Shown here: positions 5,224-36,099 of the stretch, piece after piece | Position numbering within the stretch: position 1 is the first letter of the stretch | Layout of the letters: every line of letters starts with the position of its first letter | Origin: Myxococcota bacterium | GTDB lineage: Bacteria > Myxococcota > XYA12-FULL-58-9 > JASMKV01 | DNA: 52,753 nucleotides | Direction of reading: 5' to 3' | Assembly: GCA_030749035.1 (NCBI GenBank) | Contig: JASMKV010000329.1 | Span: 1 to 52,753, forward strand | Notes under the pieces: model-generated | Databases searched by the model: none | What the model was told of the DNA's origin: nothing | Seen by the model: only the letters and a program-made list of their open reading frames with translations | Made by a program: the position numbers and the translations under genes

Positions 5224-5226
5224 CCT

Positions 5227-12955: not shown

Positions 12956-13687
12956 CTAGAAAGTGTAGCGCAAAGTAAAGGCTGCTCCAAGTGCTGGGAT
13001 ATTGGGGCCAATGACATAATAACCCGTCAATGACATACCGGCGGTAAAGTCCGTCAGCAAAGTCAAATATTTCAGATCTAATCCACCTGAAACATGTGGC
13101 GCCATCGCCGGAAGATCCGCATTTTGATCTGCCGGATCGGTTAATGCTGGGTTCATCGAGGTCAATCCGCCACCCACCTTGGGCTCCAAGGCGAAACGTT
13201 GACCGGGCCGCAGGGCTGCAACCAATTGCACGCCAATATTAAAGAGACCATAGTTTTGCTTGCCTGTTGCATAAATAGGCTGATTGTTCTCTGAAATCGC
13301 ATTTCCAGAAGCGTACCCCGTCGACATACTACCTTGCACACTAATATAGTCGTTCAAATCAACCCCTGCATTTAAGCCCAAGTAAGGCTGCACATTAGAC
13401 ATCCCACTGGCACCTGCAAAGGTCAGAAACACACCCATATCTGTGGAGAGATAATAACCGCGTTGCAATTCAAAGACGGCCAAGCGATCCTCCTCACCAA
13501 TCTCTGGTAATTCTTCATCGCCTTGAGCCTCACCTGTATCGCCATCAAGCTCTGCTTCATAATCATCAAGTCCCTCTAAGAGGTCTTCGTCTTCGGCCGC
13601 TTCCTCTGCCCATGAGACCGCCGGTACCGCAAAAGTAACCAAACACGTCACACTAAACAGAACAAATAGATTCTTCAACCACAACAT
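12956..13687 (-). CDS. gltH: GltH/CglE-like outer-membrane beta-barrel protein
   Basis: Signal peptide, acidic linker, amphipathic strands and C-terminal LRYTF beta-signal. Lies directly downstream of gltG, as in the myxobacterial glt/nfs clusters. Confidence 0.7.
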   Translation of the reverse strand: MLWLKNLFVLFSVTCLVTFAVPAVSWAEEAAEDEDLLEGLDDYEAELDGDTGEAQGDEELPEIGEEDRLAVFELQRGYYLSTDMGVFLTFAGASGMSNVQPYLGLNAGVDLNDYISVQGSMSTGYASGNAISENNQPIYATGKQNYGLFNIGVQLVAALRPGQRFALEPKVGGGLTSMNPALTDPADQNADLPAMAPHVSGGLDLKYLTLLTDFTAGMSLTGYYVIGPNIPALGAAFTLRYTF

Positions 13688-13692
13688 TAATC

Positions 13693-15249
13693 TTAGCCCC
13701 CTGATTTGAATATCCACGGATAGGTCACATCAACCGTGCCCCCACCTGAGCATGGTGGGAATTTAAGTCTCTTGATCACTTTAAGAATACAATTCTCAAC
13801 ATTTGCATCCCCCATTGTGGATTCACCAATTTTCGATGAGATGACGGAGCCAGTAGGGCCAATAACGAATTGACAAGCAATCTTACCTTCAAGGTTTGGA
13901 TTTCTTGGCAATTCTTTTTCGTAACAATAACGTATTTGATTGTTTACGCGCCCAATAACCCGTCCAACAACAGCTCTGGATAAGCAACCTTTGGTGATTG
14001 TTCGCCCAGGAATGACAGCATATTTACCTTTACCACGACCACCCAAATCGATGTCGCCCATGCCACCGGTACCACGTCCAGTACCGCTGCCCAAGCCACC
14101 AATACCTAAACTGTTACCACCGCCACCTGGACCTGTACCACGTGAGCCCAGACCACCGGCACCACCGGCATCGCCCATCGCCGTACCACGTAAACCACCG
14201 AGGGCATTATTGATGCCTGTCCCTAAGCCACCTGGACCAAAAATATTGGAGGCTGCACCGCCTTCACCACCCTTAAGGGCGGCAAAAATTCCTGAATCCA
14301 TAGCGATCTTACGATCCTTTTCACGTTTGTTTGGATCAACCTTGGGTGCTCCGGCAGTACTCGCCAATGCATCTTGTTTATTCTCTTCAGGCTTACCAAA
14401 CTTACCCTCATCGTCCTTATGCTTAGCGCCACCTTTAGAACCGGAAAGTTCAAACTTTTTCTTCGGTTCTGGTGCTTTTTCTGGCTCCTTCAATATCAAT
14501 TTTGCAAATCGGTTCGGATTCTTGAACAAGTCCTCTTCCAAATCGCTGGGATCGATTGGTGTTAAAAGCAATGCCAAAAGGACAAACAAATGCCCGACAA
14601 AGGAAAGGCTTAAAACTTTTGTAAAATATAAATCAAGCGTCTTCATCAACGCGGCACGAGGAAAACGTGCTGGCGCAACATATTGTAAGACAAAGGTAAG
14701 TTGATCTATCTGGATAGCCACACGGTCGTTAAGCCCAACCCTATAGCTGAATTCTTTGTAGATCTTGCCATCAAGGCCTTCCTTCTGCTCACTCGTGACT
14801 TGTTTCGCGTCAACCAGCGCATCACCGGTGGTGATTTCGCCATCCTCGGCACGCACTTCCATGCTCATGGCATCAGACCACTTGACCACAAAGCTATCAT
14901 CCCTGACGTCAAGCAGAGAAAAATGCTCTAACGGCAAGCTCTCTGCCGCAATACGGAAATCATTCTTCTTGCCATCACCGACAGTAATGATTCGAGGCTC
15001 AATATAATGCCCCACGCTCATGACCGCCTCATGCCACAAAAGCACGACTTCGAGGGCCTTTTTATCGGCACTTGGTCTATCTTCGTCAGGCAAATGGTCC
15101 TTAAATATAAAGGTCGGTATGCCCGAAGCATCACGCTCCAAATCAGGCAAATCCATCTTTATGGGGCCATGCGACTCAACGCCCCCGTCATCACCCGATC
15201 GACGTGCAAAATCCTTTGCTTCCGATGTATTTTTCTTTTCCTCACTCAT
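13693..15249 (-). CDS. gltG: GltG/PglI-like TonB/TolA-type inner-membrane energy transducer
   Basis: Single TM with S-x3-H motif (LSFVGHLF), Gly-rich linker (GGAGGLGSRGTGPGGGG) and AgmX/PglI C-terminal domain (QIRYCYEKEL..NPNLEGK...VENCI...FP...VTYPWIF). GAAGGA RBS before ATG 15249. Confidence 0.88.
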   Translation of the reverse strand: MSEEKKNTSEAKDFARRSGDDGGVESHGPIKMDLPDLERDASGIPTFIFKDHLPDEDRPSADKKALEVVLLWHEAVMSVGHYIEPRIITVGDGKKNDFRIAAESLPLEHFSLLDVRDDSFVVKWSDAMSMEVRAEDGEITTGDALVDAKQVTSEQKEGLDGKIYKEFSYRVGLNDRVAIQIDQLTFVLQYVAPARFPRAALMKTLDLYFTKVLSLSFVGHLFVLLALLLTPIDPSDLEEDLFKNPNRFAKLILKEPEKAPEPKKKFELSGSKGGAKHKDDEGKFGKPEENKQDALASTAGAPKVDPNKREKDRKIAMDSGIFAALKGGEGGAASNIFGPGGLGTGINNALGGLRGTAMGDAGGAGGLGSRGTGPGGGGNSLGIGGLGSGTGRGTGGMGDIDLGGRGKGKYAVIPGRTITKGCLSRAVVGRVIGRVNNQIRYCYEKELPRNPNLEGKIACQFVIGPTGSVISSKIGESTMGDANVENCILKVIKRLKFPPCSGGGTVDVTYPWIFKSGG

Positions 15250-15293
15250 CTTTTTATCCTTCAAATGCAATCATTAGGCTATGCGGTTCTTGT

Positions 15294-15542
15294 TTAGAGA
15301 TGATCCGGAGTGGACAAAAGCTCCGGCACAAAATTCTCTCGTAACTTAATCAAAGAAGAAAAACGACTTACCTTGCGGTTCACGATGTAGGAGCCTTCCG
15401 GCTTGGTCAACTCCCCCTCAATCAAAGCTTCGGAAAAATCAATCACCGTGCGTTTTTTGTACTTCACATCATCACCGGCCAAGCCGACAGCACCATACAA
15501 AAACAAGCTTAAAAAGGCCAAATATTTTAATGCTTTCATCAT
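15294..15542 (-). CDS. gltF: GltF/CglF small periplasmic gliding protein
   Basis: Signal peptide, then KKRTVIDFSEALIEGELTKPEGSY...FSSLIKLRENF, the characteristic CglF sequence. AAGGAG RBS; position between gltE and gltG. Confidence 0.92.
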   Translation of the reverse strand: MMKALKYLAFLSLFLYGAVGLAGDDVKYKKRTVIDFSEALIEGELTKPEGSYIVNRKVSRFSSLIKLRENFVPELLSTPDHL

Positions 15543-15552
15543 CACTCCTTCT

Positions 15553-16830
15553 TTAACTCCAACGCGTTTCAGTGTTCAACAATAATATCGAGCTTGCAGC
15601 ATCATCGGGCTTTACCGTTTCAACATTGCCCTCGGACGGCCCCGCATCAAGAGCTTGGCCCTCGTTTTCGCCACCCTCTTGCGGCGCACCTTCATCCTGA
15701 GGCAATTCGACGGGCCCTGCTTCCTCTTCAGCCTGCATCGCCCTTATCGCATCAATTAAACCATGGACGTGATGATCTTTCGCCAGGTTTTGCTTGGACT
15801 TCTGATAGGCCTCAAAATTTTCCAAGGCGCACTTATTGTCTCTTAACTGCGCCATACAGATGTTGCCCATCGCAAAGAGGAGTTCTTTCTCTGCAGGACA
15901 CAGCGCATAAGCTCTACCAAACTGCGCCAGTGCGTCCTTGCCTTTCTGCATACCTTCCAAAGCATAGCCAAGTGCACTGCTCGTATCACAAGTAAGAACA
16001 CCGGACTTAATGGCCTTATCGTAACTTGCCGCCGCACGCCCATAATCACGCCAGCGTAAAGCAATGGCGCCTATATTCGCATGCGCGACCGCATTATCGG
16101 GTGCAAGCTTTAAGCCCTGTTCAAACTCAAAAAGGGCACGTTGCTCATTGCCTCGTCTGGCCTGCATAAGACCTAAGTTGACAAAAATGGATGCATCCTT
16201 CTCATTAAGCTTTAACGCGTTACGCAAAAATGTCTCAGCCAAAGTCAACTTGCCCATGTCCGCATAAGTCAAACCAATGGACTTTGTCGCTTCGGCATTC
16301 GTCTGGTCCTTCATCAGAACTTTCCGCGCCGTATTGATGGCTTCGATAAATTTCTTATCTAAGCGCAAAATGACTGCATAAGTATTAAGCACATCGATAT
16401 CATCAGGATGCGCTTTTAACACTGGATGCAAAACTTTTGACGCATCCCCCACGCGCCCCAAAGCCACATAAACCCGCGCCAAATTTAATGCTGAAGCAAT
16501 ATTTTCTGGTTGAGCCTTTGCCGCAGCCTCAAACAACGCTGCTGCCTCTTTCATCTCGCCATGTCTCTCCAAAGAAATGGCATGGTTCACTTTGGCTGAA
16601 ATAAGTCCTGCATCAAGGGCATACGATTTTGCAAAATATTTTGCCGCCAACGGCCAATTTGCCTCGCGCCCCGCTTTTAAGCCTTCTACAAATTTACCTT
16701 CCGCAGGAGTCTTTGCCTCCGGCAGTGGTTCAAATTTATTCTGTGTTCCGGCACACCCCCACAACATGAGAGCCAAAAACAAGCTGGCCAGTTGACCACT
16801 TTGTCGAACGATGATGTTGCTCTTTTTCAT
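15553..16830 (-). CDS. gltE: GltE/AglT-like TPR lipoprotein
   Basis: Lipobox LWGC, tandem TPRs, acidic tail; TAATG overlap with gltD; position between gltD and gltF. Confidence 0.78.
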   Translation of the reverse strand: MKKSNIIVRQSGQLASLFLALMLWGCAGTQNKFEPLPEAKTPAEGKFVEGLKAGREANWPLAAKYFAKSYALDAGLISAKVNHAISLERHGEMKEAAALFEAAAKAQPENIASALNLARVYVALGRVGDASKVLHPVLKAHPDDIDVLNTYAVILRLDKKFIEAINTARKVLMKDQTNAEATKSIGLTYADMGKLTLAETFLRNALKLNEKDASIFVNLGLMQARRGNEQRALFEFEQGLKLAPDNAVAHANIGAIALRWRDYGRAAASYDKAIKSGVLTCDTSSALGYALEGMQKGKDALAQFGRAYALCPAEKELLFAMGNICMAQLRDNKCALENFEAYQKSKQNLAKDHHVHGLIDAIRAMQAEEEAGPVELPQDEGAPQEGGENEGQALDAGPSEGNVETVKPDDAASSILLLNTETRWS

Positions 16831-19800
16831 TATCGCATCTCCACCAATTCCGGTGAGGCAAAAAGCGACTCATCGGCTATAAGTTCATATTTATGAATCG
16901 CGGGAAAGCGCCCCGGCTCATACACCGCCAAAGCCTCCTGCGTTTTCTGCAACCAATCGTTATAAAGCCCCAGGTCGTATGCCTTCGTCAGCGCATTATC
17001 ATAGGCTTCGATGGCTTTTTCTTCCAAAGGAAAGCCTTTTTCCTGCAATGCAGCTTGGTAAATAATACATTGGTCTTCAGTCAAGCGTGACGGACAAGGC
17101 GCTTCAAACAATTCGTTGGCCAAGTTCTGATAGACCCGCCCAATACGGTAAAGTGATGCGATACCATAATCACCCTGACCCAACTGTAAGACCTGAGTGT
17201 AATGACCTTGCAACTCCTCAACTTTTTTCAGTTTTTCCACAAGATTCTTTGTGATCTGCTTTTCACTGCCCGTCAAAGTAAGCGCCATATAAGTCTCATA
17301 CTCAGCCTGCAAAAGCTCAAATGATGCATGCCCAACCGCATCTAAAGCACAGGCATCGGTCTTCTTATCATCAGGGAGCGCCTTATAAACCTTCACCAGA
17401 TTTGTCCAAGTGCCTGAATCCGCACGCTGCAGCTGCACCTTCGCCTCCGCAATCTTATATTCCGCACACATAAAACGCCCTGGATCGGACTTTTTGACTT
17501 TGGCCTTATAAATCTCGTAATGCTTAATCACCACGCTATAGTTTTTTTGCTTCTCGTGAATCAAACCAATACGCCAAACGATGTCTAAGACATCCTTTTT
17601 ACTCGGGAACTCACGCACGTAGGCATCAAAATCCAAAATCGCTTCAGTGTACTGCCCGAGACCTTCACGGAAAAGCCCCGCATTGAAAAGTGCATCTGCT
17701 TTTTTAGGGCCTTTCTTGAACTGCTTGGCATAAGCCTCATAATACTTCGCCGCACGCTCAAATTCCGCCAAGCGTTCATAAAAAGAAGCCGCCAAAAACA
17801 AAGTCTTCTCACGCAAGAGATCTGGCTCTGGCAAAGATGTGCCTTCTTTTTTGGTTTTCTTAATCTCGGCTGCGCTGATTTTGAAAGACGAGTACTCATT
17901 CAAAAGCTTTTCACTGGTGTCGATAGCTCTTTGCAGCAACCCTGCCTTGTCGTAATTGATCAGCGCATTAAACAAGCCGACCATCGCATATTTACTCTTA
18001 GGAAACTCAGTGGAAAAACCGTTATAATAGTTTGCAATTTCCTTAGGAGAAGCTTTAGGCTCGAACACGAAATGGATTTCATTAAATGAAGCCCCTTCGA
18101 CCAACTCGTCAACCTTTTTCTTGAAAGCCTTATTGGCAATTAAAATCTTGTGGTCCCTAAATTTACGAGACCATTGATTCAACTGCGACCAGTCCTCACG
18201 CACATTAAACGACTGCAAAATGGACTCTGCGCCCAAGCGCGCCAACTTATCATTTGGCCAGCGGTCAATGACCTCGCCAAAACGCTCAGCGGCTTTTTCA
18301 AATTGATTGTGGATGTAGTAGAGCCGTGCACTCTTAAACTTCACCTTAACCACTTCGGCATCCTTCGGTGCAACCTCGACAAAACGGTCATAGGCTTCAG
18401 CCAAACGCAATTCATTGGCGTCTAAAGTCTTTTCGGCGTAACTTTCGCCTTTTTTGAGAACCTTTAATTTCTCAAGCTCTTTGAGCGCACCTTTCGAGCG
18501 CCCTTTCTTCGATTCTCTAATCTTTTTACCAAGTGTTTCTTTGACACCACTGACAACTTTTTCCAAAGCCAAAACGGCAGTATAAGCTGAAGGAGTCGCA
18601 AACTCTCCTTTCTTATTCGCATTGATGACTGCGGTGTACTGAATCGCCGCTTCATCAAATTGCTTTAACTCAAAAAGAATTTCCGAATAGAAGAATCGGA
18701 ATTTATAACTGTTCACCGTTTCTCTAAACTTATCGAGATACTCCTTATAAATATCCCGAGCTAACTTATACGTTGCAACATCTTTTGTGCGCTGCGCATC
18801 ACGATGCTGTTCGGTCACCAAAGAAGCCAATTCCTGCTCAACAACCTCAAAGGCCGACTCCAAAATCCGCGCATTTCCAGAATTTTTCTGCGCCCAAATA
18901 CCGTTTGGCGAATAGAGGTCAATAAGACGTCGCACTTCACGACGCACATCTTCGGTCCTGCCGAGACGGGCATATGCGGCCATAATGGATGTCTGATTCT
19001 GAGGCGCTTCCCCCGCATAGGGCGCTTTATTATTCAATCTTTGAAATGTTTGAATCTCAAGAGCCGACTTACCTTCACGATTATAAAGTCCAGCTAAACG
19101 ATGCAGATATTTATAAGCACGCTTATCACCGACTTCTTCCTCATAAAAAGTAAATGCCTCTTCAACCGCATCTAAATGCGAATAAGTACGCACCATATCT
19201 GAAAGAGATTCACTCATCAGTTGGATACGATCACGCTTACCTAATTTACTCTTACCCTTCGCAGGACTTTGCTTCTTCGCATACGCTATGACTTGTCTAA
19301 ATTTTTCAAGAGCCTTCCCGTATTCCTGCAGGTTGTAATCACACCACGCCAGTTTATAGAGCGCAAACGAATAGATACGTGCTTTTTTGGTCTTAGCTGC
19401 TTTTTTATAAGCTTTAATCGCATTACTTAACTTATTCGCGTTAAAGAAATGCTCCCCCAGCTGCAACCATGCATCCGGCACATACACAGAGCGGGGAAAT
19501 TGCTTAATCAATTTCCAATAATATCTCACACCCTTCTTCTTTTGTCCCGCTTCATAATGGGCTGTACCCAGTGTATAGAGGACTTCGTCTTTTCTCGGAT
19601 ATGTACGATATTTTTTAAGGATCTTACCATAAAGCTTTAATGCTTCGCGACGATACAAACCGCTTTGCTTAAGCTCTGGCATGTCTTCAAACTTTGGCTG
19701 ACGGCCTTTCGAACCACGTTTATGCCATGCATCCAACGCCTCGTCCCATTCCTGCATGCCACGTAAATGCAGAAATTTACTTTTTGCCCAATACATTTCA

Positions 19801-20081
19801 GCCAATCGAAAAATTAACTCCGCTTTTTGCCCACCTTCAGGAATGGTGCCCATGAGTTTTTTTAGCTTGGCGATAGCTTCGTCACGCTTTCTGTCCGCCC
19901 TGACACTCATATCCACACCATCGCTCGAGCTAAGGTCAAATTGTGCCGGTGCCGAACGTTCTTCACGTGCATTTGCTCCCGGTTCCCCGCCACCCTTCGT
20001 CATCTTGGAGGCCTGCGCATACAAAGGCAGACTTAAGAGCATCGAAGTCAGGATTGCTTTACATGTCAATTGATTTACCAT
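16830..20081 (-). CDS. gltD: GltD/AgmU-like large periplasmic TPR protein
   Basis: Signal peptide; ELIFRLAEMYW, FALYKLAWCDYN, KFRFFYSEILF and C-terminal APCPSRLTEDQ..IY..AL...PLEEKAIEAY pattern of AgmU/NfsD; 1083 aa. Confidence 0.85.
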   Translation of the reverse strand: MVNQLTCKAILTSMLLSLPLYAQASKMTKGGGEPGANAREERSAPAQFDLSSSDGVDMSVRADRKRDEAIAKLKKLMGTIPEGGQKAELIFRLAEMYWAKSKFLHLRGMQEWDEALDAWHKRGSKGRQPKFEDMPELKQSGLYRREALKLYGKILKKYRTYPRKDEVLYTLGTAHYEAGQKKKGVRYYWKLIKQFPRSVYVPDAWLQLGEHFFNANKLSNAIKAYKKAAKTKKARIYSFALYKLAWCDYNLQEYGKALEKFRQVIAYAKKQSPAKGKSKLGKRDRIQLMSESLSDMVRTYSHLDAVEEAFTFYEEEVGDKRAYKYLHRLAGLYNREGKSALEIQTFQRLNNKAPYAGEAPQNQTSIMAAYARLGRTEDVRREVRRLIDLYSPNGIWAQKNSGNARILESAFEVVEQELASLVTEQHRDAQRTKDVATYKLARDIYKEYLDKFRETVNSYKFRFFYSEILFELKQFDEAAIQYTAVINANKKGEFATPSAYTAVLALEKVVSGVKETLGKKIRESKKGRSKGALKELEKLKVLKKGESYAEKTLDANELRLAEAYDRFVEVAPKDAEVVKVKFKSARLYYIHNQFEKAAERFGEVIDRWPNDKLARLGAESILQSFNVREDWSQLNQWSRKFRDHKILIANKAFKKKVDELVEGASFNEIHFVFEPKASPKEIANYYNGFSTEFPKSKYAMVGLFNALINYDKAGLLQRAIDTSEKLLNEYSSFKISAAEIKKTKKEGTSLPEPDLLREKTLFLAASFYERLAEFERAAKYYEAYAKQFKKGPKKADALFNAGLFREGLGQYTEAILDFDAYVREFPSKKDVLDIVWRIGLIHEKQKNYSVVIKHYEIYKAKVKKSDPGRFMCAEYKIAEAKVQLQRADSGTWTNLVKVYKALPDDKKTDACALDAVGHASFELLQAEYETYMALTLTGSEKQITKNLVEKLKKVEELQGHYTQVLQLGQGDYGIASLYRIGRVYQNLANELFEAPCPSRLTEDQCIIYQAALQEKGFPLEEKAIEAYDNALTKAYDLGLYNDWLQKTQEALAVYEPGRFPAIHKYELIADESLFASPELVEMR

Positions 20082-20110
20082 CTTGTCCTTTTCCTAACTT
20101 AAGAGAGCAC

Positions 20111-21595
20111 CTAGAAGCATTCGCTACGTACTGCGTGCTCAATATAACCGATCTCATCTTTCCAGTATTCCCGCCGAAAACCCCAATGCTGCCATTGGTC
20201 GTTGGGAATCGCTGGACGGGGCAAACGAGCTCGTCTTCCTTTAAGAATTTCTTTTCCTTGTTCGAGCCACTTTCTCTCAGCGTCTGTGACCTCAAAATCG
20301 AGAATATTGATTTGATTTTGAAAATGCTGCAACATCACCTCTCGGTTACGAAGCTGCATACGGGCCCAGTTTCCTACCGCCGGTTCAAGCTGTTCTTGCT
20401 GCGAGATCAACACGGCTGTTAAATCATCCTGCAGTCGCGTAGAGCGCCAGGTGGCCATATTGGCAACGGCCTTTTTCTCCCACTCAATATGGGTCAAAAG
20501 ATAGTGGAAATCCTTGAAACGTTTTGTGTGACGCACTGAACGCGAGAGCTCTATAGAATAATTCGGATTGGAATCAGCGATCACGTGCCGATAATATTCC
20601 GCTGGAGCTCGAGATTCCTCCAAGTAGACACGAAGATCTGAAAGCATCGGATCATAATTTTCTTTGAAATAATCGACAGCCAGCCGCACACGATCCCATT
20701 GACATAAAACGAAGTATGTCGTCCCTTGCACAACATAAGCCTCAGGCATGTGACGCTTAGAGAAATAAGGCGCGGTTGCACTTTGCAGCTCGCCTAAGGT
20801 CTTGCCATATTCTTCCAAGCGGAAATAGGCCCATGCATTCTCATACATCGCGGTAAACCAAGACTCGCTAAAACGTGGCACCTCTTTAAAGCCCTCAGCC
20901 GCTTCACGATATTGTCCCAAGCCATATTTAACACGAGCCGCCGCCAGCTTAGACATGTCGCTGATGTATTTATGGTCCTCATCACTGGTGTCGTGATACA
21001 TCTGAGAGATTGCCCCAAAATGCTGCAATGCCTTCTCTGGCTGACCACGACGAATACTTAAAATCCCCAACAAATAACGGGCGCGCGGATAATAACGACT
21101 GTCATCAGCAACATACTCTAAAAATGCCTGGGCATCCTGATTCTTGCGCTGTCGAAAGGACAATTCCCCAACCATATAGTTGATTTGTGCAATCGAAGCA
21201 GAATCCAGCTGACCAAACGCATCTGGATTTAACCCATCGTTGATAAGATTTGGCACAATAAGGTGATCATGCAATTTGCGCTGAATATCCAACAAACCTT
21301 CGATGGCGTTAAAGTAATAACGGTTTCGAGGACCAATCTTAAATAGGTCAGAATAGTAAAAAAGCGCAGGAAGATAGAGTTCAAGTTTACGTAAACCTTC
21401 TGCCAAATAAATCTGTGCCTGATCGCGGTTATCCGGGTTGGCATCATTTAAGAGCACATCATAAAGTGCAAACACGGCTTGTTCGTATTTGTGGTCTTTA
21501 TAAAGTGAGAGCCCTTCATCCAAAGACTGGGCGTGTAACGCCACAGGGGATAAAATCAGCCAGAAAACAAGTAAATTCTTTTTCCAAAGTGTCAT
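20111..21595 (-). CDS. gltC: GltC-like periplasmic TPR protein
   Basis: Signal peptide, TPRs, MYENAWAYF..LG.L...APYF and the characteristic C-terminal HWGFRREYWKDEIGYI..V.SEC. ATG 21595 has AGGTG upstream. Confidence 0.88.
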   Translation of the reverse strand: MTLWKKNLLVFWLILSPVALHAQSLDEGLSLYKDHKYEQAVFALYDVLLNDANPDNRDQAQIYLAEGLRKLELYLPALFYYSDLFKIGPRNRYYFNAIEGLLDIQRKLHDHLIVPNLINDGLNPDAFGQLDSASIAQINYMVGELSFRQRKNQDAQAFLEYVADDSRYYPRARYLLGILSIRRGQPEKALQHFGAISQMYHDTSDEDHKYISDMSKLAAARVKYGLGQYREAAEGFKEVPRFSESWFTAMYENAWAYFRLEEYGKTLGELQSATAPYFSKRHMPEAYVVQGTTYFVLCQWDRVRLAVDYFKENYDPMLSDLRVYLEESRAPAEYYRHVIADSNPNYSIELSRSVRHTKRFKDFHYLLTHIEWEKKAVANMATWRSTRLQDDLTAVLISQQEQLEPAVGNWARMQLRNREVMLQHFQNQINILDFEVTDAERKWLEQGKEILKGRRARLPRPAIPNDQWQHWGFRREYWKDEIGYIEHAVRSECF

Positions 21596-21604
21596 CAGTT
21601 GCAC

Positions 21605-22477
21605 CTACAGTAAAAAGCTCACGCCAATGAGGATCATTAATCGGTTTTGAATATCGGTATAAGTCCATCCAGCTTCCGTCGCGAGATCTGGATAAGCCAC
21701 ATCCCGTACTTCCACCCGATAGCCAAGAAAATCACTAAAGAACACACGCATACCGCCACCTAAGTGACCGGCAATTTTAAAACGATCGCTGCCACCTTCA
21801 GGGCTTCGCAAGCCTCGCCCAATGCCAACATCCTCGCCACAGCCATCTTGACTGGGCACACATGTTTCAAGCGTACTGGTTAAACCAAAGCCTGCTGAAA
21901 GATAGACATCATAATCCATCACCCAGTCGTAAAAGACCATTTTGCCGTAAAGTGCGGAGAACTGGGCACTCAAGGCACCAAAATAATTCATTTGCTTGAG
22001 GTCAACAACTTCAGGTGTCAATGACTCATACTCATACACATCGTAAACAAGCCCCGCATAATAGGCACCGAAAAGAAAAGGTATCGTCGTTGTAAAATCC
22101 AAAGCCAGATTTTCACGCATATGATAGGTTGCGGAAAACCCCAGACCATAGTGACCCACAAACTTATTGTTCAAAGAAAACACGCCCAAAGGTGCAAACT
22201 CAAAAGCGCTCTTCTTAGAAAAAGCGCGACGCTGAATCAAATAAATCGACTGGTCTTTGGTGCCGCGTAAAACTGGATCAACATGTGTCCCAGGAATCGA
22301 TATCGGCTCCTCTTCGACCTCTGCCTCCATCTCTTCTGCTGATTCATCATCGGCTTCGGCTTCCGCTTCGGGATCATCCTCAAGCAGGTCCTCGAGTTCT
22401 GACAATTCATCCGCCAGAGCAAGTTGTGGCTGCCCCAAAAAGAAAAGGCCAATACAAAAAGCAATAAACAATCGCAT
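21605..22477 (-). CDS. GltA/GltB-type outer-membrane beta-barrel protein
   Basis: Signal peptide from ATG 22477 (GAAGGA RBS), acidic linker, IQRRAFSKKSAFEFAP, LYGKM, GGGMRVFFS..VEVRD, terminal GVSFLL; immediately upstream of gltC. Confidence 0.82.
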   Translation of the reverse strand: MRLFIAFCIGLFFLGQPQLALADELSELEDLLEDDPEAEAEADDESAEEMEAEVEEEPISIPGTHVDPVLRGTKDQSIYLIQRRAFSKKSAFEFAPLGVFSLNNKFVGHYGLGFSATYHMRENLALDFTTTIPFLFGAYYAGLVYDVYEYESLTPEVVDLKQMNYFGALSAQFSALYGKMVFYDWVMDYDVYLSAGFGLTSTLETCVPSQDGCGEDVGIGRGLRSPEGGSDRFKIAGHLGGGMRVFFSDFLGYRVEVRDVAYPDLATEAGWTYTDIQNRLMILIGVSFLL

Positions 22478-22488
22478 GCTAAATCCTT

Positions 22489-23274
22489 CTAAAAGAGCAA
22501 AAAGCTCAGGCCAAACTGACCAAACCAATGATGAGACGCATAGGAATCCTCGACCCCATCTTTGTCAAAATCAAACTTGTCGAAAAAGACCAAATCCCGA
22601 AACTCTGCACGCAGAGCTAAACGTTCAAGAAAAAAGAAACGAATACCGGCCCCAACCAGGCCATTGACTTTCATGCCATCTAAAAAGCCGCCCGCCCCAA
22701 AGCCTTGCGCTGAGAGCGTATAATCTGCTGCGGAGACGGGGTTAGACGCCTCGATATTGCGTGTGCCATTCACACCCAACCCGGCAAGGTAATAAATCTG
22801 CATACTCGCATCGAGCTCAGAAACCATATTGATTTTGCCGTAGAAAGGCGACCACTCAAAAATCGCATCGATCATACCTGTCATTTGCGCATAATCGGGC
22901 AAGTCAGGATTGATGTCGCAACCGCCCACCTCTGTACACTTGGTAATTTTATTTCCAATCACACCGGCAGGATCGGTGACAATATTGGTCAGCTGACCAT
23001 TGAGCATCCCGACACTCAATGCGGCCCCCATGGTGTCACTAAAGTGATACGTGAAATCCAGAACACCGCCCAGATGTTTCGTGTATTTGTCGATCATCGA
23101 TGTCGCGAAAAGCAAAGAAACCTCGCCGCGTCCTAACGTGGGATAACCGGAATCTTCAATCGCAGGCGCACCTGCAAAATCGCTGTCACCAAAAGGGTCA
23201 TTGGAATATTCAGGACCCGCTGCAAAAGCCGAACCTGCCAACAAAGTCCAAAGCAGAACTATTGTTATACGCAC
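22489..23274 (-). CDS. GltA/GltB-type outer-membrane beta-barrel protein (first gene of the operon)
   Basis: Signal peptide, WSPFYGKIN, GAGIRFF..ALRAEFRD, terminal GLSFLLF; paralogous to its neighbour; AAGGAG RBS before GTG. Confidence 0.82.
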   Translation of the reverse strand: MRITIVLLWTLLAGSAFAAGPEYSNDPFGDSDFAGAPAIEDSGYPTLGRGEVSLLFATSMIDKYTKHLGGVLDFTYHFSDTMGAALSVGMLNGQLTNIVTDPAGVIGNKITKCTEVGGCDINPDLPDYAQMTGMIDAIFEWSPFYGKINMVSELDASMQIYYLAGLGVNGTRNIEASNPVSAADYTLSAQGFGAGGFLDGMKVNGLVGAGIRFFFLERLALRAEFRDLVFFDKFDFDKDGVEDSYASHHWFGQFGLSFLLF

Positions 23275-24072: not shown

Positions 24073-24615
24073 ATGACAGAAGAGCCCAAAATCCCGCAAC
24101 GCTTCGAGGTCAAACTGGCCAGCATCGACCCAATCTTACCCAAATGCTGCACCGCCTGTTTGAGCGAAGACATCTCCGAAGAGCGACGTCACGCTTTTCG
24201 CCGCGCCGACGGTACCGTCGAACGGGTTTCGGTAGTGTACTGGCCCTATTGCCAAAAATGTCATCAAGGTTTGGCCAAACTTGATCGGGCCCAAAGCCTC
24301 CTCACCTTGATTGGATTTATTCAAATGTGCTTGGTCATCTACGCCATTGGCGCGTCGATGGATTACTACGATTTTTGGATGCCCGTAAGTGGCCTCTTTG
24401 CCTTGTTTTTCTGGGTGTTTTTTCACTTTGGTAAGAAAGCACGAAGCCTATGGCGTTTCGAATGGGCGCGCATCGAAGATGTCTACAAGGGCGGTTTTGG
24501 CGCCAACTACAGCTTTCGCTCTCGTGAATTTGCCCAGAAGTTTGCCGATACTAATCGAAAAAACGACGACGGGACGGCCGAAAACACCACACCAGAAGCC
24601 CCAGCAGCAGATTAA
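24073..24615 (+). CDS. Hypothetical membrane protein with putative Zn-binding Cys pairs
   Basis: LPKCCTAC...PYCQKC followed by two hydrophobic helices; starts 3 nt after the upstream stop. Confidence 0.65.
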   Translation: MTEEPKIPQRFEVKLASIDPILPKCCTACLSEDISEERRHAFRRADGTVERVSVVYWPYCQKCHQGLAKLDRAQSLLTLIGFIQMCLVIYAIGASMDYYDFWMPVSGLFALFFWVFFHFGKKARSLWRFEWARIEDVYKGGFGANYSFRSREFAQKFADTNRKNDDGTAENTTPEAPAAD

Positions 24616-26644
24616 AGAACATATGGCTTGGCGGCTCTTCTGAACTCAGCGCACAAGCACAACCGCCAGATTCGGGTACTGTCGGCTCTACAGGCGGCAG
24701 CACTGGACCATCCTTTCGCCAACATTGACCTTCACCAGAAAGAATCAGGCACTCAAATTCATCGTTCACCCCATCCCCATCCAGATCTTCATCTGGACAA
24801 CCTTCCTTCGTCACCACATTACAGCCGCTCGTGCATGCTGCCTGCCCGCCATAACGTAAACAATCCCCCGAAGCACAATCCGCATTCACATTGCAGGCTT
24901 GACCAACTTCAGCCGCCAAAACATCCATGGGCGGCTCACATAAACTAAACGCATTACAACCATCGTTATACGTGTTGCACGATTGTCCTGAACGACAGTC
25001 GGCAACAGAATCGCACAATGCAAAGCATTTTGAATTTGTGACCTGATCAAGATAAAAACACCCCGCATCGCCAGAACAAATGCTTTTTTCACTGGTCACA
25101 CAAGATTCATTTTCCGTGCGGATATCAAAACAACCACCATGGGGCATCGCACTCGAATCCGCATTACAATTGCCCGATTCGGTAATGCCAAAACAGCAGG
25201 TCTGTTCTGGGTTTTCACAGGGTTTATCAAAAGCATTACAGTATTCGACGCAATTGCCCTCCTGCCCATTCGAGGGGTTATTATAATCGTAACAGCGCAA
25301 ACGAAACAAAAAGCAAACCAAGCCGCCACCACAAATACCGTAAGCATCATCATCGGTGGAACCCGGATTATACCCAATATAACACAAGTCATTTTTGACA
25401 CCCAAATTGCTATTCGCATTCACCGTACCGCATAGACTCATGTCGCCGGGCCAACACACCGCGGAGTTGTCATCGGTGCCGAGGCAGCCAAAGCCCGTTG
25501 GACAATTACTGCCTAAGTCATCCGAATTGACACAAGATTGCGTGCAAATAGAATTGCCACTATCATCATGCACGCAAAGGCCATTAAAACATTCAGTCCC
25601 ATCGCCACAGGGCGCACAAAGGTCGGAAGGAAACCCTTCGTCATCGACAATATCGACAACCGCATCACCAGTGGCATTAAGGCCTGGCTTACAAAATGCA
25701 TCCTCGCCACAAACCGCCGCATCATTACAACACACAAAACCAGCACCACAGTCATCGGTCGTCGTGCATTCGGCGGCACACCAACCATAACCGGCTTCGG
25801 CTGCGGCACCGACCACGCAAACGTGATCGCCTGGACATGTATGCGTACCCGTCGTACACCGTTCTCCCGTAAAACGGTCATAAGAGCCGTCAACCCGCGG
25901 CGGGTAAATCGTGCAAATGGCGGTTTCTTCATGCACACTCAAGTCGCTAAGCTGCGACGTCGATGAGCCTTCGGGAAACATCACCGCATCGGTACACTGC
26001 ACATGATCAAAACCAAAAAAGTGCCCGGCTTCATGCAAAGCCACCGCGTGGATATCGTAACAATCGTTCGCGCCTGCGGTGCAGCCTGAGTTCTCTGCAC
26101 GCCATTGGTAATCAATGCCATTGAATTCCATATCACCGGTCACCACAAACCCTGAATCGCTAAAATGCAGATTGGTGGTCAGCCCCACTGTACCACTGTC
26201 CAAACCGGTTGGTCTCTCCGCTTCATCTTTGACCCAGTAAATAATATTCTTCATCTCATCGATGGGCGTAATCAGCTCACCATCATCATTATAGCTTTCA
26301 CCACGATCTCTGTCTGGGTAATCCACATTATCAACATTATAACCATCATCCATCTGAATGTTGGGCGTCACACCACTGCCGGTACAATCGACCATCAACC
26401 ATTTGCTGAACGCATCATTGACGGCGCCAATCGCAGTCGCTGCCGTAATGTCCGACTGTTCCGGACCATCTTCCTGATAGCGAATAATGATTTTATTTTC
26501 ACTGGCGGGGGGAACAATGGCCCAATGATCTCCGCGCGGATAGTAAGTCGCACTGGAGCCACACTCCAACGCACTGGCATCAACCTGCGCCAAAGCCATA
26601 CTGGTCGGTAACAAAACGCAAAGCAGCGCCAGAAACCTTACCAT
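24551..26644 (-). CDS. Secreted matrixin-like (metzincin) metalloprotease with Cys-rich repeats and MYXO-CTERM sorting tail
   Basis: Signal peptide from ATG 26644; GDMEFN, HEAGHFFGFDH (HExxHxxGxxH) and AVMFP Met-turn; many C-x4-5-C-x5-C repeats; C-terminal GGCAC + hydrophobic helix + RRR. Confidence 0.88.
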   Translation of the reverse strand: MVRFLALLCVLLPTSMALAQVDASALECGSSATYYPRGDHWAIVPPASENKIIIRYQEDGPEQSDITAATAIGAVNDAFSKWLMVDCTGSGVTPNIQMDDGYNVDNVDYPDRDRGESYNDDGELITPIDEMKNIIYWVKDEAERPTGLDSGTVGLTTNLHFSDSGFVVTGDMEFNGIDYQWRAENSGCTAGANDCYDIHAVALHEAGHFFGFDHVQCTDAVMFPEGSSTSQLSDLSVHEETAICTIYPPRVDGSYDRFTGERCTTGTHTCPGDHVCVVGAAAEAGYGWCAAECTTTDDCGAGFVCCNDAAVCGEDAFCKPGLNATGDAVVDIVDDEGFPSDLCAPCGDGTECFNGLCVHDDSGNSICTQSCVNSDDLGSNCPTGFGCLGTDDNSAVCWPGDMSLCGTVNANSNLGVKNDLCYIGYNPGSTDDDAYGICGGGLVCFLFRLRCYDYNNPSNGQEGNCVEYCNAFDKPCENPEQTCCFGITESGNCNADSSAMPHGGCFDIRTENESCVTSEKSICSGDAGCFYLDQVTNSKCFALCDSVADCRSGQSCNTYNDGCNAFSLCEPPMDVLAAEVGQACNVNADCASGDCLRYGGQAACTSGCNVVTKEGCPDEDLDGDGVNDEFECLILSGEGQCWRKDGPVLPPVEPTVPESGGCACALSSEEPPSHMFFNLLLGLLVWCFRPSRRRFFD

Positions 26645-27219
26645 CCTTGCACCTCGCTCGACCACGGCAACACCGGTTGACCAGTCAGAATCTCGATGCG
26701 TTTAACGTATTCCTTTAAGGGCTCAGGCGTTTGTAAGAGATTGATTTTCCCGCTGGTCTGACTTGTGCGCGTCAAATAGAGCCCGTCCATCTGCCGAAAA
26801 ACAAAAGCCTCACCTTTTTCATTGAGCCGCACGCGCAAGAGTCCATAGGACAAACCCAGCGGCCAAAAGACATCACCGTGACGCTCAAGATAGCCTAAAA
26901 CAATATCTCCAACGGCCAATCTCGGCGCCCCTGAGGTCACCGCTTTGAGCCCATTGGGCAGCTCACCACCGGGTACTTCAAGCGTGACAAAACGGGTCGC
27001 TTCTGCGCCTAATAAATGCTGATTGATTTGCAAAACCGCCCTGGTGACAATTTCCTTGCCACCCTTGACCCCCACGGCTGTATGCACCACGCTTCCCATC
27101 ACAATCACATCAGAGCGCGACACCAGATCTTGTTCACTCAACGCCACAACGCTGGAGGCGTGCGCAACGGTTGGGATAGCAAGAAGCACAAAAACGCTTA
27201 ACCACTTAAACAACGTCAA
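26638..27219 (-). CDS. Secreted hypothetical protein, partner of the downstream protease
   Basis: Signal peptide (AHA|S); LSEQDLVSRSDVIVMGSV...VPGGE...SGAPRL..GD..L.YL pattern, seen fused to or adjacent to matrixin-type proteases; CAGGAG RBS; 7-nt overlap with the protease start. Confidence 0.75.
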   Translation of the reverse strand: MTLFKWLSVFVLLAIPTVAHASSVVALSEQDLVSRSDVIVMGSVVHTAVGVKGGKEIVTRAVLQINQHLLGAEATRFVTLEVPGGELPNGLKAVTSGAPRLAVGDIVLGYLERHGDVFWPLGLSYGLLRVRLNEKGEAFVFRQMDGLYLTRTSQTSGKINLLQTPEPLKEYVKRIEILTGQPVLPWSSEVQGW

Positions 27220-27232
27220 TCTCCTGAAGTTC

Positions 27233-27249
27233 TCTTGAAGTATTCAAGA
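27233..27249. promoter_or_regulatory. Perfect inverted repeat TCTTGAA-N3-TTCAAGA, candidate operator
   Basis: Seen directly, 13 nt upstream of the 27219 start and next to a minus-strand TTGACA. Function is inferred only. Confidence 0.3.
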
Positions 27250-27369
27250 TCTTGTCAATGACTGCAAGGTTTACATGCATTTAGACGATTTAAAATATGT
27301 TTTAAAAACATCCCCTTAACGTGGCACACCATCGAGACCTTGATGCACAACACGAACTTAAAAGGGGTT

Positions 27370-29136: not shown

Positions 29137-29166
29137 CGCTTATCTCGTATCCTTTAACCCTGCGTC

Positions 29167-30435: not shown

Positions 30436-30509
30436 ACTATTGAGGATTTACGCCGAAGTTGCAAGAGCTGATTGTGCCAAGCACACAAGTTCGAGAGAAC
30501 GGCCTGAGC

Positions 30510-33358: not shown

Positions 33359-33370
33359 AGGAAACGTCCA

Positions 33371-34204
33371 ATGATTGGTGTTATCGGCGGCAGTGGTATC
33401 TACAATCTTGACAATTTTAACATCACCTCCACGCAAGAGGTGAGCACGCCTTTTGGCGCCCCATCAGATAAAGTGATGCTTGGCGAGCTCAATGGCGCTG
33501 AGATTGCCTTTATCCCACGCCACGGCAGTGGGCACCGACTCCTTCCACATGAGGTACCTTATCAAGCGAATGTTTTTGCGCTCAAAAAACTCGGCGCGCG
33601 CGCGCTCATTTCGGTATCGGCTGTCGGCTCAATGCGTCAGGAAATCCACCCTGGCGATATCCTTATCCCAGACCAATTCATCGATCGCACCATGGGCAGG
33701 GCCTCTACTTTTTTTGGTGATGGTCTGGTTGGACATGTTTCTGTCTCCGATCCTGTCTCACCAGAACTTGCGCAGCATTTTACTCAAATGATTGAAGAAG
33801 AAAATATCAAATGTCATAAAAGCGGCACTTACGTCTGCATACAAGGTCCTGCATTCTCAACACGAGGCGAGTCTGAACTTTATCGCACTTGGAATGTTGA
33901 TGTGATTGGCATGACGGCCTGTCCCGAATTTAAACTCGCTCGCGAAGCCCAACTTCACTACATGACATTGGCGCTGGTCACAGATTACGACTGCTGGCAC
34001 AGTGAAGAAGAGGATGTCAGCGCAGAGAGCGTCATTCAAACGCTTAATAAGAATTCTGCAAATGTAAAACGTATCCTGAGCAAAAGCCTGCCCGCTTTAA
34101 GCCAGCGCCTTACGCCACTCAACGCACTTGAACACGCACTGATGAGCGATCCTGCATTGCTCTCAAAAGAGCAACAAGATCTACTCGACATTTTAAAACA
34201 ATAG
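33371..34204 (+). CDS. mtnP: S-methyl-5'-thioadenosine phosphorylase
   Basis: IGVIGGSGIY, TPFGAPSD, PRHG, SAVGS, DQFIDRT, GPAFSTRGES, IGMT..PE.KLAREA, VTDYDCW. Confidence 0.95.
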   Translation: MIGVIGGSGIYNLDNFNITSTQEVSTPFGAPSDKVMLGELNGAEIAFIPRHGSGHRLLPHEVPYQANVFALKKLGARALISVSAVGSMRQEIHPGDILIPDQFIDRTMGRASTFFGDGLVGHVSVSDPVSPELAQHFTQMIEEENIKCHKSGTYVCIQGPAFSTRGESELYRTWNVDVIGMTACPEFKLAREAQLHYMTLALVTDYDCWHSEEEDVSAESVIQTLNKNSANVKRILSKSLPALSQRLTPLNALEHALMSDPALLSKEQQDLLDILKQ

Positions 34205-36049: not shown

Positions 36050-36099
36050 GATGTTATTTCTTACAAAAGATGGGCCGCACGGCAAGATCAAAGAGCAGC

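Follow-up and report, generated by a model that had tools for sequence, protein, structure and literature searches.

Which kind of envelope machine is encoded by a compact block of eight genes in a bacterial genome variously labelled Myxococcota, Deltaproteobacteria or 'Bdellovibrionales'? Machines of the Glt/Nfs family serve gliding and spore-coat assembly in Myxococcus. The original prediction for positions 12956-23274 of the window (the whole stretch of DNA analysed, 52,753 nt) was an Agl-Glt gliding operon of ancestral or lineage-specific type, orthologous to glt of M. xanthus with gltA-H still contiguous.

Gene content and order

The block consists of eight co-oriented minus-strand ORFs, A, B, C, D, E, F, G and H of the Glt/Nfs family, tightly packed with longest-ORF spacings of -40, 0, 29, -1, 7, 23 and -25 nt, in keeping with the gaps of 0-45 nt first described. 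The Glt signatures were also recognised correctly: NCBIfam models match seven of the eight proteins and the eighth, D, is tied to the family by strong homology. The NfsA/GltA-like (22489-23274, 261 aa, signal peptide) and NfsB/GltB-like (21605-22528, 307 aa by longest ORF) proteins are outer-membrane beta-barrels matching TIGR04565 OMP_myx_plus with 79.4 and 81.1 bits (cut-off 60); the true start of B is probably later, at MRLF. The NfsH/GltH-like barrel (12956-13717, 253 aa) scores 135.5 bits with NF033755 CglE/GltH (cut-off 70). Between them lie genes for an NfsC/GltC-like periplasmic TPR protein (20111-21604, 497 aa), an NfsD/GltD-like large TPR scaffold (16830-20081, 1083 aa, signal peptide), an NfsE/GltE-like TPR lipoprotein in which LWGC reads as a lipobox (15553-16830, 425 aa; NF033758, 99.5 bits, cut-off 225), an NfsF/GltF-like small exported protein (15294-15545, 83 aa) and an NfsG/GltG-like anchor of the inner membrane whose C-terminal domain is of TonB type (13693-15270, 525 aa). 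The NF033760 match of G spans model positions 201-649 only, and its AgmX/PglI C-terminal domain scores 101.5 bits with NF033768 (cut-off 40); Pfam and NCBIfam gave no FHA domain in this protein, TonB_C being the only Pfam match. For D, NCBIfam matched TPR families and no Glt model; since generic TPR families are likewise all that the true GltD of a Myxococcaceae-family genome matches, NCBIfam appears to have no GltD model. D was assigned from its homologues, 587 of the 8000 candidates scored having E<=1e-10 (one carries the source name 'gliding motility protein U'), and from trees.

Within the window the GC content lies between 43 and 51%, the figure for the whole genome being 48.7%, and a promoter and terminator scan added nothing. 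The host genome, a MAG, comprises 527 contigs and is 97.7% complete, so that a gene missing from it need not be missing from the organism. The view that an uncultured lineage carries a genuine Glt/Nfs-family envelope machine is supported.

Among GTDB species genomes 46 loci could be evaluated in full, of which 34 have the contiguous A-H order, and the available text of Luciano 2011 and Wartel 2013 already describes this order for nfsA-H; the former also reports, in that text, G1 and G2 homologues grouped together in Anaeromyxobacter. Contiguity is the norm, and the idea of a lineage-specific or ancestral-type arrangement is not supported. The claim of novelty largely fails, because the proteins nest in a clade which includes described Nfs-type clusters that share the arrangement. 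The nfs-like order itself was borne out. The A barrel of the window best matches the barrel adjoining true gltC in all three Myxococcaceae-family loci (37-43 bits) and the B barrel matches the one distal to gltC, so the window has the A-B-C order of nfs rather than the K-B-A-C of glt.

Paralogue assignment

Reference 'Nfs-type' and 'true Glt' clusters were taken from Myxococcaceae-family genomes, as set by synteny and NCBIfam cut-offs. The window misses four of the five Glt equivalog cut-offs, those of GltC, GltE, GltF and GltG; the fifth model, CglE (NF033755), does not separate Glt from Nfs because an Nfs-type H scores 126.6 bits. With the GltC model NF033756 (cut-off 450) the window protein reached 185.8 bits, the Nfs-type protein 212.5 and the main copy of G015, a genome from a sister family in the same bacterial order, 180.5, against 468.3 for the Glt-proper copy of G015. 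That copy belongs to a second cluster in the sister families which meets the GltC and GltF cut-offs. With the GltG model NF033760 (cut-off 650) the window scored 275.2 bits, the Myxococcaceae Nfs-type protein 297 and the G015 second cluster 480.3, the last over a full-length protein with FHA, and with NF033764 CglF/GltF (cut-off 90) the window had 57.7 and the G015 second cluster 95.7. The window scores thus resemble those of Myxococcaceae Nfs-type proteins and differ from those of the second cluster.

The trees gave the same division. In the GltD tree (LG+G4, 36 rows), true Glt grouped with the second cluster (SH-aLRT 99), and the window with the MAG clusters and Nfs-type proteins (100); under a C20 mixture with 25 rows the supports were 97 for true Glt plus second cluster and 99 for the side of the window and Nfs-type, and in the GltG mixture tree (31 rows) 97 and 80. 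An AU test rejected the joining of Myxococcaceae Glt with Nfs-type in a single clade (lnL difference 136.8, p 3.4e-5), the clades put to this test having been named only after the trees had been inspected. The branches of true Glt and the second cluster are long, and attraction between those two is possible. The window cluster forms a subclade apart from Myxococcaceae Nfs-type clusters but on the same side of the split, and the duplication behind Glt and Nfs appears older than the literature has it. Judged from these sequences, the window cluster would be a widespread contiguous Nfs-side paralogue of the family and not gliding Glt proper. The Agl-Glt identity originally assigned is not supported, in view of the sub-threshold GltC, GltE, GltF and GltG scores and the Nfs-side position in the GltD and GltG trees, where the proteins nest with clusters already known in this arrangement.

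GltI, GltJ and other partners in the genome

As first noted, gltJ- and gltI-like genes are indeed close by, about 11 kb upstream of the A-H block on the same minus strand. The GltJ-like protein (34214-36091, 625 aa; NF033761, 106 bits) has a zinc ribbon (residues 15-49), a linker, a GYF domain (GYF_2, 245-293), a membrane span and a TonB-like C-terminus (AgmX/PglI C-terminal domain). The GltI-like protein (36100-43587, 2495 aa) is a giant TPR protein, and the best matches of both occupy positions I and J in true glt clusters. The GltI N-terminus is about 1060 aa shorter than in sister families, the part from residue 276 on aligning at 42% identity with the G015 protein (3549 aa) from its residue 1335 on. 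Between the host genome and its congener, identity is 87.7% for GltI, on a par with GltD (88.3%), which suggests that GltI is under constraint; it is 47.5% for GltJ, and this divergence and the N-terminal loss of GltI could reflect changed or relaxed function. A conserved minus-strand module lies between gltJ and the A-H cluster (24551-31841) and comprises, by Pfam and NCBIfam matches, a TPR protein (443 aa), a DnaJ-domain protein (422 aa), a DnaK-like protein (588 aa) that is a distinct paralogue, a 193-aa protein and an M10-type metalloprotease (704 aa). All or most of it adjoins gltI-gltJ in six other genomes of four families.

The second cluster of the sister families runs barrel-barrel-C-D-E-F-G-H-I-J on one strand in G015 (contig 14) and G024 (contig 7), H being confirmed in G015 only. 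Its Glt-proper A-H genes lie directly upstream of gltI, at the position where the window has an intergenic junction (43588-43824) between gltI and a 157-aa gene; the same junction occurs in G012, of the same genus. The description 'single contiguous glt operon' properly fits this second cluster. The proximity of gltI-gltJ is real, but the meaning first given to it is not supported, since in sister families a separate A-H set adjoins gltI. Genome-wide phmmer and HMM searches found no such set in the host genome or its congener (97.7% and 92% complete): neither has a GltC above 203 bits or an extra GltD or GltG of Glt-proper type, and the only other GltD/GltG-type cluster of the host is of core type, on contig C494. 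Genomes of the genus measure 3.6-4.0 Mb, against 5.9-7.0 Mb in relatives with 3-5 GltD matches. Adjacency of gltI-gltJ and the Glt-proper cluster is not obligatory, for they are on separate contigs in G025. Across the order, 13 further genomes gave hits to the N-terminal portion of GltJ and 12 of these have a Glt-proper-like GltC, and three genomes without GltJ and without Glt-proper GltC (G019, G023, G026) keep the main-type cluster. GltJ thus tracks Glt proper, and GltI and GltJ may not work with the window cluster at all.

Of the gliding partners sought in the host genome, AglRQS-like motors and MglA (E 1.4e-95 to PDB 6h17) were present, and MglB and GltK/CglC were not found. The two candidate motors, each an ExbB with two ExbD, stand alone on contig C370 and inside the core-type cluster on C494. 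Their ExbB proteins are each other's nearest paralogues in relatives (41%), with 35% and 32% to two Myxococcaceae homologues and 26-31% to other TolQ/ExbB proteins.

Proposed working and comparison with known systems

The window cluster is most likely a proton-motor-driven surface-transport complex, and we consider it fairly probable that the eight genes form a complete A-H 'transducer' of the Nfs side. From M. xanthus we infer the protein contacts, energy coupling and output. G would be the inner-membrane protein, its TonB-like periplasmic end contacted by a proton channel of TolQ/ExbB type that has two ExbD-type subunits; D, C, the lipoprotein E and F would build the periplasmic TPR scaffold, and A, B and H would sit as barrels in the outer membrane. 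Protons flowing through the motor would shift the complex along the envelope, dragging surface-bound cargo. Such contacts have precedents in the available text of two papers: AglR binds both GltG and NfsG, one motor serving both machines (Wartel 2013), and GltA, GltB and GltC together make up a platform in the outer membrane (Islam 2023). For the output, gliding-type surface translocation with GltI and GltJ as cytoplasmic couplers is slightly favoured, at somewhat less than even chances, because no other A-H set was found and GltI, GltJ and MglA are retained; Nfs-like arranging of surface glycan without motility comes close behind.

The more specific alternative that the cluster is a glycan machine that plays no part in motility and moves secreted polysaccharide (capsule, slime, coat) around the cell, with GltI and GltJ as leftovers of a lost Glt proper in an independent or fading role, appears unlikely though worth taking seriously. 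Agl-Nfs carries Exo polymer around Myxococcus spores, and the grouping with Nfs-type clusters, the fast divergence of GltJ, the shortened GltI and the failure to find GltK and MglB all agree with it. So do G019, G023 and G026, which imply that a main-type cluster works without I and J, as Nfs does in the available text of Wartel 2013. The intact gltI and gltJ ORFs and the conservation of GltI argue for continued use, no other A-H set was found for these proteins to partner, MglA is kept, sporulation is not known in the lineage and the window showed no linked genes for glycan export. A further possibility, which we hold improbable, is that an ordinary Glt-proper A-H set, served by gltI-gltJ, is missing from the fragmented MAG and the window is the usual Nfs-type paralogue. 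The 527 contigs and the incomplete 97.7% allow for this, as do the separate contigs of G025, but both genus genomes lack the same genes, both have a clean junction between gltI and the 157-aa gene, and both are small. The Agl-Glt operon originally proposed is the least probable reading. It has on its side the 'gliding' Glt/Cgl names of the best NCBIfam matches, the nearby gltI and gltJ, MglA and the AglRQS-like motors; it is largely refuted by the missed cut-offs, the trees, the nfs order, the commonness of the arrangement and the Glt-proper cluster that adjoins gltI in G015 and G024.

Among known systems, the NfsA-H of M. xanthus (G3 cluster, the Agl-Nfs spore-coat machine) resembles the window in its single co-oriented block of the same order, its Glt model scores and its side of the split, and by analogy with the available text of Wartel 2013 an AglRQS-type motor would be expected to act through G in the window system too. 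It differs in that Nfs has no GltI and GltJ, Nfs-type loci encode a G of 622-637 aa whereas the window G lacks the N-terminal extension, and the host lineage is marine and uncultured, has a 4-Mb genome and is not known to sporulate. The Agl-Glt machine (gltK-B-A-C, gltD-J, aglRQS, MglA/MglB, AglZ, CglB) has the same A-H families and shares GltI, GltJ, MglA and AglRQS-like motors with the host genome, and the zinc ribbon-linker-GYF layout given for GltJ in the available text of Attia 2024 matches the window protein; in contrast to the window it has FHA in G and I-J directly after H, it includes GltK and MglB, which were not found in the host genome, and it falls on the other side of the duplication. 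The Glt-proper cluster of G015 and G024 comes from the same order and has the same I and J, flanked as in the window by the 157-aa gene, a 748-aa gene and RapA on one side and the DnaK-like module on the other, but its C and F exceed the Glt cut-offs, its G is full-length with FHA and the cluster groups with true Glt. The grouped G1+G2 homologues of Anaeromyxobacter and the expanded core of Bdellovibrio (Bd0828-0838) are similar in that genes of glt type which M. xanthus has in separate places lie together, with H, I, J and K missing in Bdellovibrio, according to the available text of Luciano 2011. The core-type paralogue cluster (C-D-E-small protein-G-356-aa protein), to which the C494 cluster belongs, contains internal TolQ-ExbD-ExbD genes in the host genome and G015, unlike its Myxococcaceae-family versions.

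Content and arrangement of the eight-gene cluster

The genome that supplied the window, as one whole contig (C329), is a metagenome-assembled genome (MAG) of 3.97 Mb in 527 contigs, with 48.7% GC, 97.7% completeness and 2.1% contamination. On the minus strand at 12956-23274, eight co-oriented ORFs encode proteins of 261, 307, 497, 1083, 425, 83, 525 and 253 aa, with spacings of -40 to +29 nt between the longest ORFs. The A and B barrels (261 and 307 aa) match OMP_myx_plus (TIGR04565) with 79.4 and 81.1 bits (cut-off 60). They are followed by a GltC-like protein of 497 aa (NF033756, 185.8 bits, cut-off 450), a GltD-like TPR protein of 1083 aa, a GltE-like protein of 425 aa (NF033758, 99.5 bits, cut-off 225), a GltF/CglF-like protein of 83 aa (NF033764, 57.7 bits, cut-off 90), a GltG-like protein of 525 aa (NF033760, 275.2 bits, cut-off 650) and a GltH/CglE-like protein of 253 aa (NF033755, 135.5 bits, cut-off 70). 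The G protein also carries an AgmX/PglI TonB-like C-terminal domain (NF033768, 101.5 bits, cut-off 40), and TPR families from Pfam and NCBIfam were matched in the C, D and E proteins. No Glt model of NCBIfam matched the 1083-aa protein, nor did any match the true GltD of a Myxococcaceae-family genome, so NCBIfam seems to be without a GltD model. GltD homologues were nevertheless found 587 times at E<=1e-10 among 8000 scored candidates, one of them named 'gliding motility protein U' by a source. As read from the translations, seven of the eight proteins have signal-peptide-like starts, the E protein has a lipobox-like LWGC and the G protein has a single hydrophobic span. A PDB sequence search with the G protein gave no match.

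An anchor with an AgmX/PglI TonB-like C-terminus, OMP_myx_plus barrels and TPR scaffolds thus stand in one cluster, the combination that marks the Glt/Nfs superfamily. The cluster is a member of this family and is expected to work like it; it is real, complete and ordinary in arrangement. The original prediction of tightly packed, co-oriented A-H genes with Glt signatures was confirmed by the ORFs, by NCBIfam matches for seven of the eight proteins and by homologues for D. Between 12700 and 23700, 7 promoter-like sites were counted (14.2 expected) and 12 terminator-like sites (12.6 expected), numbers that are uninformative. Three sequencing runs from three studies contain at least half of the sampled window words; all are labelled seawater metagenome, with no RNA data set among the matches listed.

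The frequency of this arrangement was counted from an alignment of the GltD homologues, whose profile was scanned against one genome per GTDB species. The best 80 of the 287 stretches encoding a relative were kept, all from MAGs labelled Myxococcota, Deltaproteobacteria, Myxococcales or 'Bdellovibrionales'. Genes around GltD were called by phmmer (E<=1e-3) from the proteins of the window, and 46 of the 80 loci, those reaching 4.2 kb or more upstream of GltD and 4.8 kb or more downstream, were evaluable. The full order A-B-C-D-E-F-G-H was present in 34 of these 46, in a sample that leans to the window type since loci were ranked by likeness to its profile. Six more had A-G with H not detected and three had C-D-E-F-G without barrels; single loci had A-B-C-D and H with E-F-G incomplete, A-B and D-H with C not detected, or D alone. 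In the part of Luciano 2011 available to us, nfsA-H forms one cluster, and the four Anaeromyxobacter genomes have their G1 and G2 homologues together. The contiguous arrangement had been proposed to be lineage-specific, which neither the 34 loci nor these published cases support, and contiguity as the mark of a special lineage was rejected on the synteny count. The cluster itself is ordinary, one more member of a family common in uncultured Myxococcota.

Placement relative to Glt and Nfs

Reference genomes of the Myxococcaceae family were reached via the genome of an 'Archangium sp.' locus, and their clusters were identified by synteny and NCBIfam cut-offs. Three main types were found. Type 1 is a contiguous A-H cluster, present at four loci, all with the same arrangement as the window. 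Since the only contiguous A-H cluster of Myxococcus xanthus is nfs, as described in the accessible text of Luciano 2011 and Wartel 2013, we call this type Nfs-type. Type 2 (D-E-F-G...I-J) has a GltG above the curated cut-off (659-970 bits) and was taken as true Glt; its GltC (841-962 bits in four genomes) is located elsewhere, behind CglC and two barrels. Type 3 is the core type, C-D-E-small protein-G-356-aa protein.

On the Glt models, Nfs-type scores (GltC 212.5, GltG 297 bits) resemble those of the window. The window's GltC, at 185.8 bits, falls below the 450 bits that are exceeded both by true GltC and by the GltC (468.3 bits) of a second cluster in G015, a genome of the same order. Its G protein reaches 275.2 of the 650 bits and covers model positions 201-649 only, where full length is expected; no Pfam match to an FHA domain, whose N-terminal presence marks Glt proper, was found in it. 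GltE and GltF (99.5 and 57.7 bits) also lie under their cut-offs of 225 and 90, the latter passed by the G015 second-cluster GltF with 95.7 bits. GltH/CglE does pass, but the Nfs-type H also scores 126.6 bits on NF033755, so the 'gliding' names of these models do not separate Glt from Nfs. At three of three loci, window barrel 1 best matched the barrel adjoining true gltC (GltA) and barrel 2 the distal one (GltB), with 37-43 bits, so the window order reads A-B-C as in nfs and not K-B-A-C. The GltK/CglC model NF033754 gave no match at E<=0.01 in the 97.7%-complete window genome; in hmmscan the same model scores an ORF of a true glt locus with 114.8 bits.

The trees were quick searches on chosen subsets of rows, with loci having split or truncated genes left out, and their support is SH-aLRT only. 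In the GltD tree of 36 rows (LG+G4), true Glt grouped with the second cluster of the sister families at 99, and the window with the MAG clusters and Nfs-type at 100. The same two groups had 97 and 99 for GltD with 25 rows under a C20 mixture, and 97 and 80 for GltG with 31 rows under a mixture model. Earlier trees without the second cluster came with a long-branch warning; in them true Glt formed a long branch within a basal polytomy. In every tree the window fell within a starred clade of MAG loci, among them locus L013, 88-89% identical in the GltD trees. An AU test rejected Myxococcaceae true Glt plus Nfs-type as one clade (lnL difference 136.8, p-AU 3.4e-5), for a group named after the tree had been seen and with long Glt branches. 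Evidence that does not depend on the trees agrees with them: the HMM scores, the FHA domain and the position next to gltI-gltJ. Judged by sequence, then, the four missed cut-offs out of five, the tree placement and GltK put the window cluster outside Glt proper, and it bears the structural and phylogenetic marks of Nfs-type. The Agl-Glt identity first assigned to it named the wrong paralogue.

GltI, GltJ and MglA, and the second cluster of sister families

The expectation that gltI and gltJ lie near the A-H cluster held. A 2495-aa TPR protein at 36100-43587 and a protein at 34214-36091 with a zinc ribbon, a GYF domain and a TonB-like end have their best matches at the I and J positions, respectively, of true glt clusters. 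Between the window and its one congener in the collection (G012), identity is 86-91% for A-D, 87.7% for GltI and 85.5% for a DnaK-like protein encoded nearby, against only 47.5% for GltJ and 42% for a 443-aa TPR protein. From residue 276 on, the window GltI aligns at 42% identity with the 3549-aa G015 protein from residue 1335 on, so that, relative to sister families, the window protein lacks about 1060 residues at the N-terminus.

MglA is encoded at C262:21531-22127 (E 1.4e-95 to PDB 6h17), flanked by ybaB/recR and ctaA-like genes. It was found through a P-loop screen and the PDB match, a Pfam Ras search having given large GTPases only. No Roadblock/LC7 (MglB) protein was found anywhere in the genome, nor beside MglA, and a crude screen for long coiled-coil-like ORFs showed nothing obvious for AglZ. 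A TolQ/ExbB-type channel with two ExbD genes occurs twice, stand-alone at C370:13651-15323 and inside a core-type cluster at C494:6461-8421; we infer that these are putative AglRQS orthologues. Orthologues of the C370 channel share 82% (G012) and 58% (G015) identity with it; identity is 41% with the core-cluster channel, 35% and 32% with two Myxococcaceae homologues and 26-31% with other TolQ/ExbB proteins, and a PDB sequence search with the C370 channel gave TolQ/ExbB matches only. The core cluster (C494:907-10983) encodes GltD-like, GltE-like, 94-aa, TolQ-like, two ExbD-like, GltG-like, 356-aa and cNMP-binding proteins, and is probably preceded by a GltC-like gene truncated by the end of contig C320 (7375-8847). 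The G015 core cluster has the same layout; Myxococcaceae-family versions are without the three motor genes.

Beside gltJ, a module at 24551-31841 encodes the 443-aa TPR protein, a DnaJ-domain protein, the DnaK-like protein, a 193-aa protein and an M10 metalloprotease. Whole or largely so, it adjoins gltI-gltJ in six other genomes of four families, usually accompanied by an uncharacterised 452-aa gene in the opposite orientation and MTAP (32000-34204, plus strand, in the window); the gltJ neighbourhoods of two Myxococcaceae-family genomes showed no such module. With 49-51% identity across families, versus about 44% to other DnaK copies, the DnaK-like protein stands apart as a paralogue of its own. 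The module may supply chaperones dedicated to the machine, or may reflect mere inherited linkage. The metalloprotease (24551-26665) is a 704-aa exported M10/matrixin-like protein with long cysteine-rich repeats and a weak NF041905 match (48 bits). It ends in a Gly-Cys motif, a hydrophobic span and an Arg-rich tail, which may be a MYXO-CTERM-like sorting signal. Farther off, at 3679-7152, lie an enolase-like protein with an N-terminal extension of about 90 aa (279 against an equivalog cut-off of 300) and, beside it, a 641-aa TPR lipoprotein-like protein with a weakly TraC-like N-terminus. This pair adjoins the DnaK-like module in the same-order genome G024.

The window's GTDB order is represented in the collection by 22 genomes in at least nine families; the genus is shared with G012 only. 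In the order's larger genomes (5.9-7.0 Mb), three to five GltD matches per genome resolve into up to four cluster types. In G015, the cluster of the window's own (main) type has the window's neighbours, with metH downstream and, upstream on the opposite strand, a DUF6918 gene. A second cluster, barrel-barrel-C-D-E-F-G-(H)-I-J on one strand, is present in G015 (contig 14) and G024 (contig 7), with H confirmed in G015 only (95.3 bits). The G015 copy (about 22321-47700, loci L120 and L128) is a contiguous Glt-proper A-J cluster, with GltC and GltF above their cut-offs and a full-length GltG (480.3 bits) with an FHA domain; CglC/GltK was not detected upstream of it. Bordering it are homologues of four window genes, those for the 157-aa and 748-aa proteins, RapA and a cNMP-binding protein; in the window these four sit just beyond gltI, and the 157-aa gene adjoins gltI across 237 nt (43588-43824), a junction repeated in G012. 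No Glt-proper A-H set was found in the window's genome. Genome-wide searches yielded only the window cluster and the core type on C494, and the sole GltC at E<=1e-30 scores 184 bits.

Across the order, GltC was above the Glt cut-off in 10 of the 22 genomes. Main-type GltC only (<=203 bits) was found in five (the window's genome, G012, G019, G023 and G026), with G030 ambiguous; families f2 and f5 had no main-type GltC at the threshold used. GltJ was matched at E<=1e-8 in 18 of the 21 genomes searched (none in G019, G023 and G026), several of these matches covering the TonB-like end only and possibly being other proteins. The N-terminal zinc-ribbon/GYF part was matched in 13 genomes besides the window's, and 12 of these have a Glt-proper-like GltC, the exception being G012. 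GltJ therefore travels with Glt proper in this order, with the window's genus as the exception; as the genomes are kin and not independent, this is a pattern and not a statistic.

Working, output and age of the split

From its homology to Glt and Nfs of M. xanthus, the cluster can be read as an envelope-spanning transducer that would be moved through its G protein by an AglRQS-like channel and would carry surface cargo. The available text of Wartel 2013 has AglR binding both GltG and NfsG, one proton-driven motor serving both machines, and the parts seen of Islam 2023 describe GltA, GltB and GltC as the outer-membrane platform. For GltJ, the accessible portion of Attia 2024 reports that the GYF domain binds AglZ, the linker MglA-GTP and the zinc ribbon MglB.

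Two outputs have to be weighed. With no other A-H set found and GltI conserved, coupling of the cluster to GltI, GltJ and MglA in a gliding-type translocation is favoured, at nearly an even chance. An Nfs-like handling of glycan is a serious candidate, somewhat short of even: the cluster has Nfs-side ancestry, the main type is independent of I and J in three relatives, and FHA, GltK and MglB are missing. Action of Nfs on the spore-coat glycan (Exo) at sporulation is, in what we have of Wartel 2013, known only from M. xanthus experiments.

The available parts of Wartel 2013 and Luciano 2011 present glt and nfs as having duplicated recently, in a terminal branch of the deltaproteobacteria. Both paralogues are present in this distant order and each groups with its Myxococcaceae counterpart, so the split looks much older; the sequences suggest that the duplication predates the divergence of the window's order from Myxococcaceae. 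We found no paper stating an ancient split or describing the clusters of this lineage; the supplements of Luciano 2011 and of Myxococcota MAG surveys may bear on the split. One of two such surveys, in its accessible part, calls nfs homologues 'partial or sporadic' outside Myxococcaceae. A fuller scenario, which we consider doubtful, is an ancient duplication, perhaps a tandem copy flanking gltI-gltJ, of which the Nfs-type copy stayed more conserved and widespread; the gliding copy would have been cleanly deleted beside gltI in this small-genome marine genus, and GltI, GltJ and MglA would now drive the Nfs-type complex. If true, this would be a natural hybrid machine, its cytoplasmic and envelope modules being interchangeable. 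A genus with GltI, GltJ and MglA and only an Nfs-type envelope part is a natural experiment on module swapping.

With a much older split, 'nfs' homologues in families other than sporulating ones cannot be taken for genes of sporulation. Homology-based surveys of A-motility or sporulation will mix up the two paralogues, and NCBIfam puts its 'gliding' names on Nfs-side proteins that score below cut-off. The evolutionary story beside it is of moderate interest; the cluster is ordinary. It shares with Nfs of M. xanthus the contiguous, co-oriented A-B-C-D-E-F-G-H order and the tree clade of Nfs-type, but differs from described Nfs in its host, its shorter G protein and a genome that also encodes GltI and GltJ.
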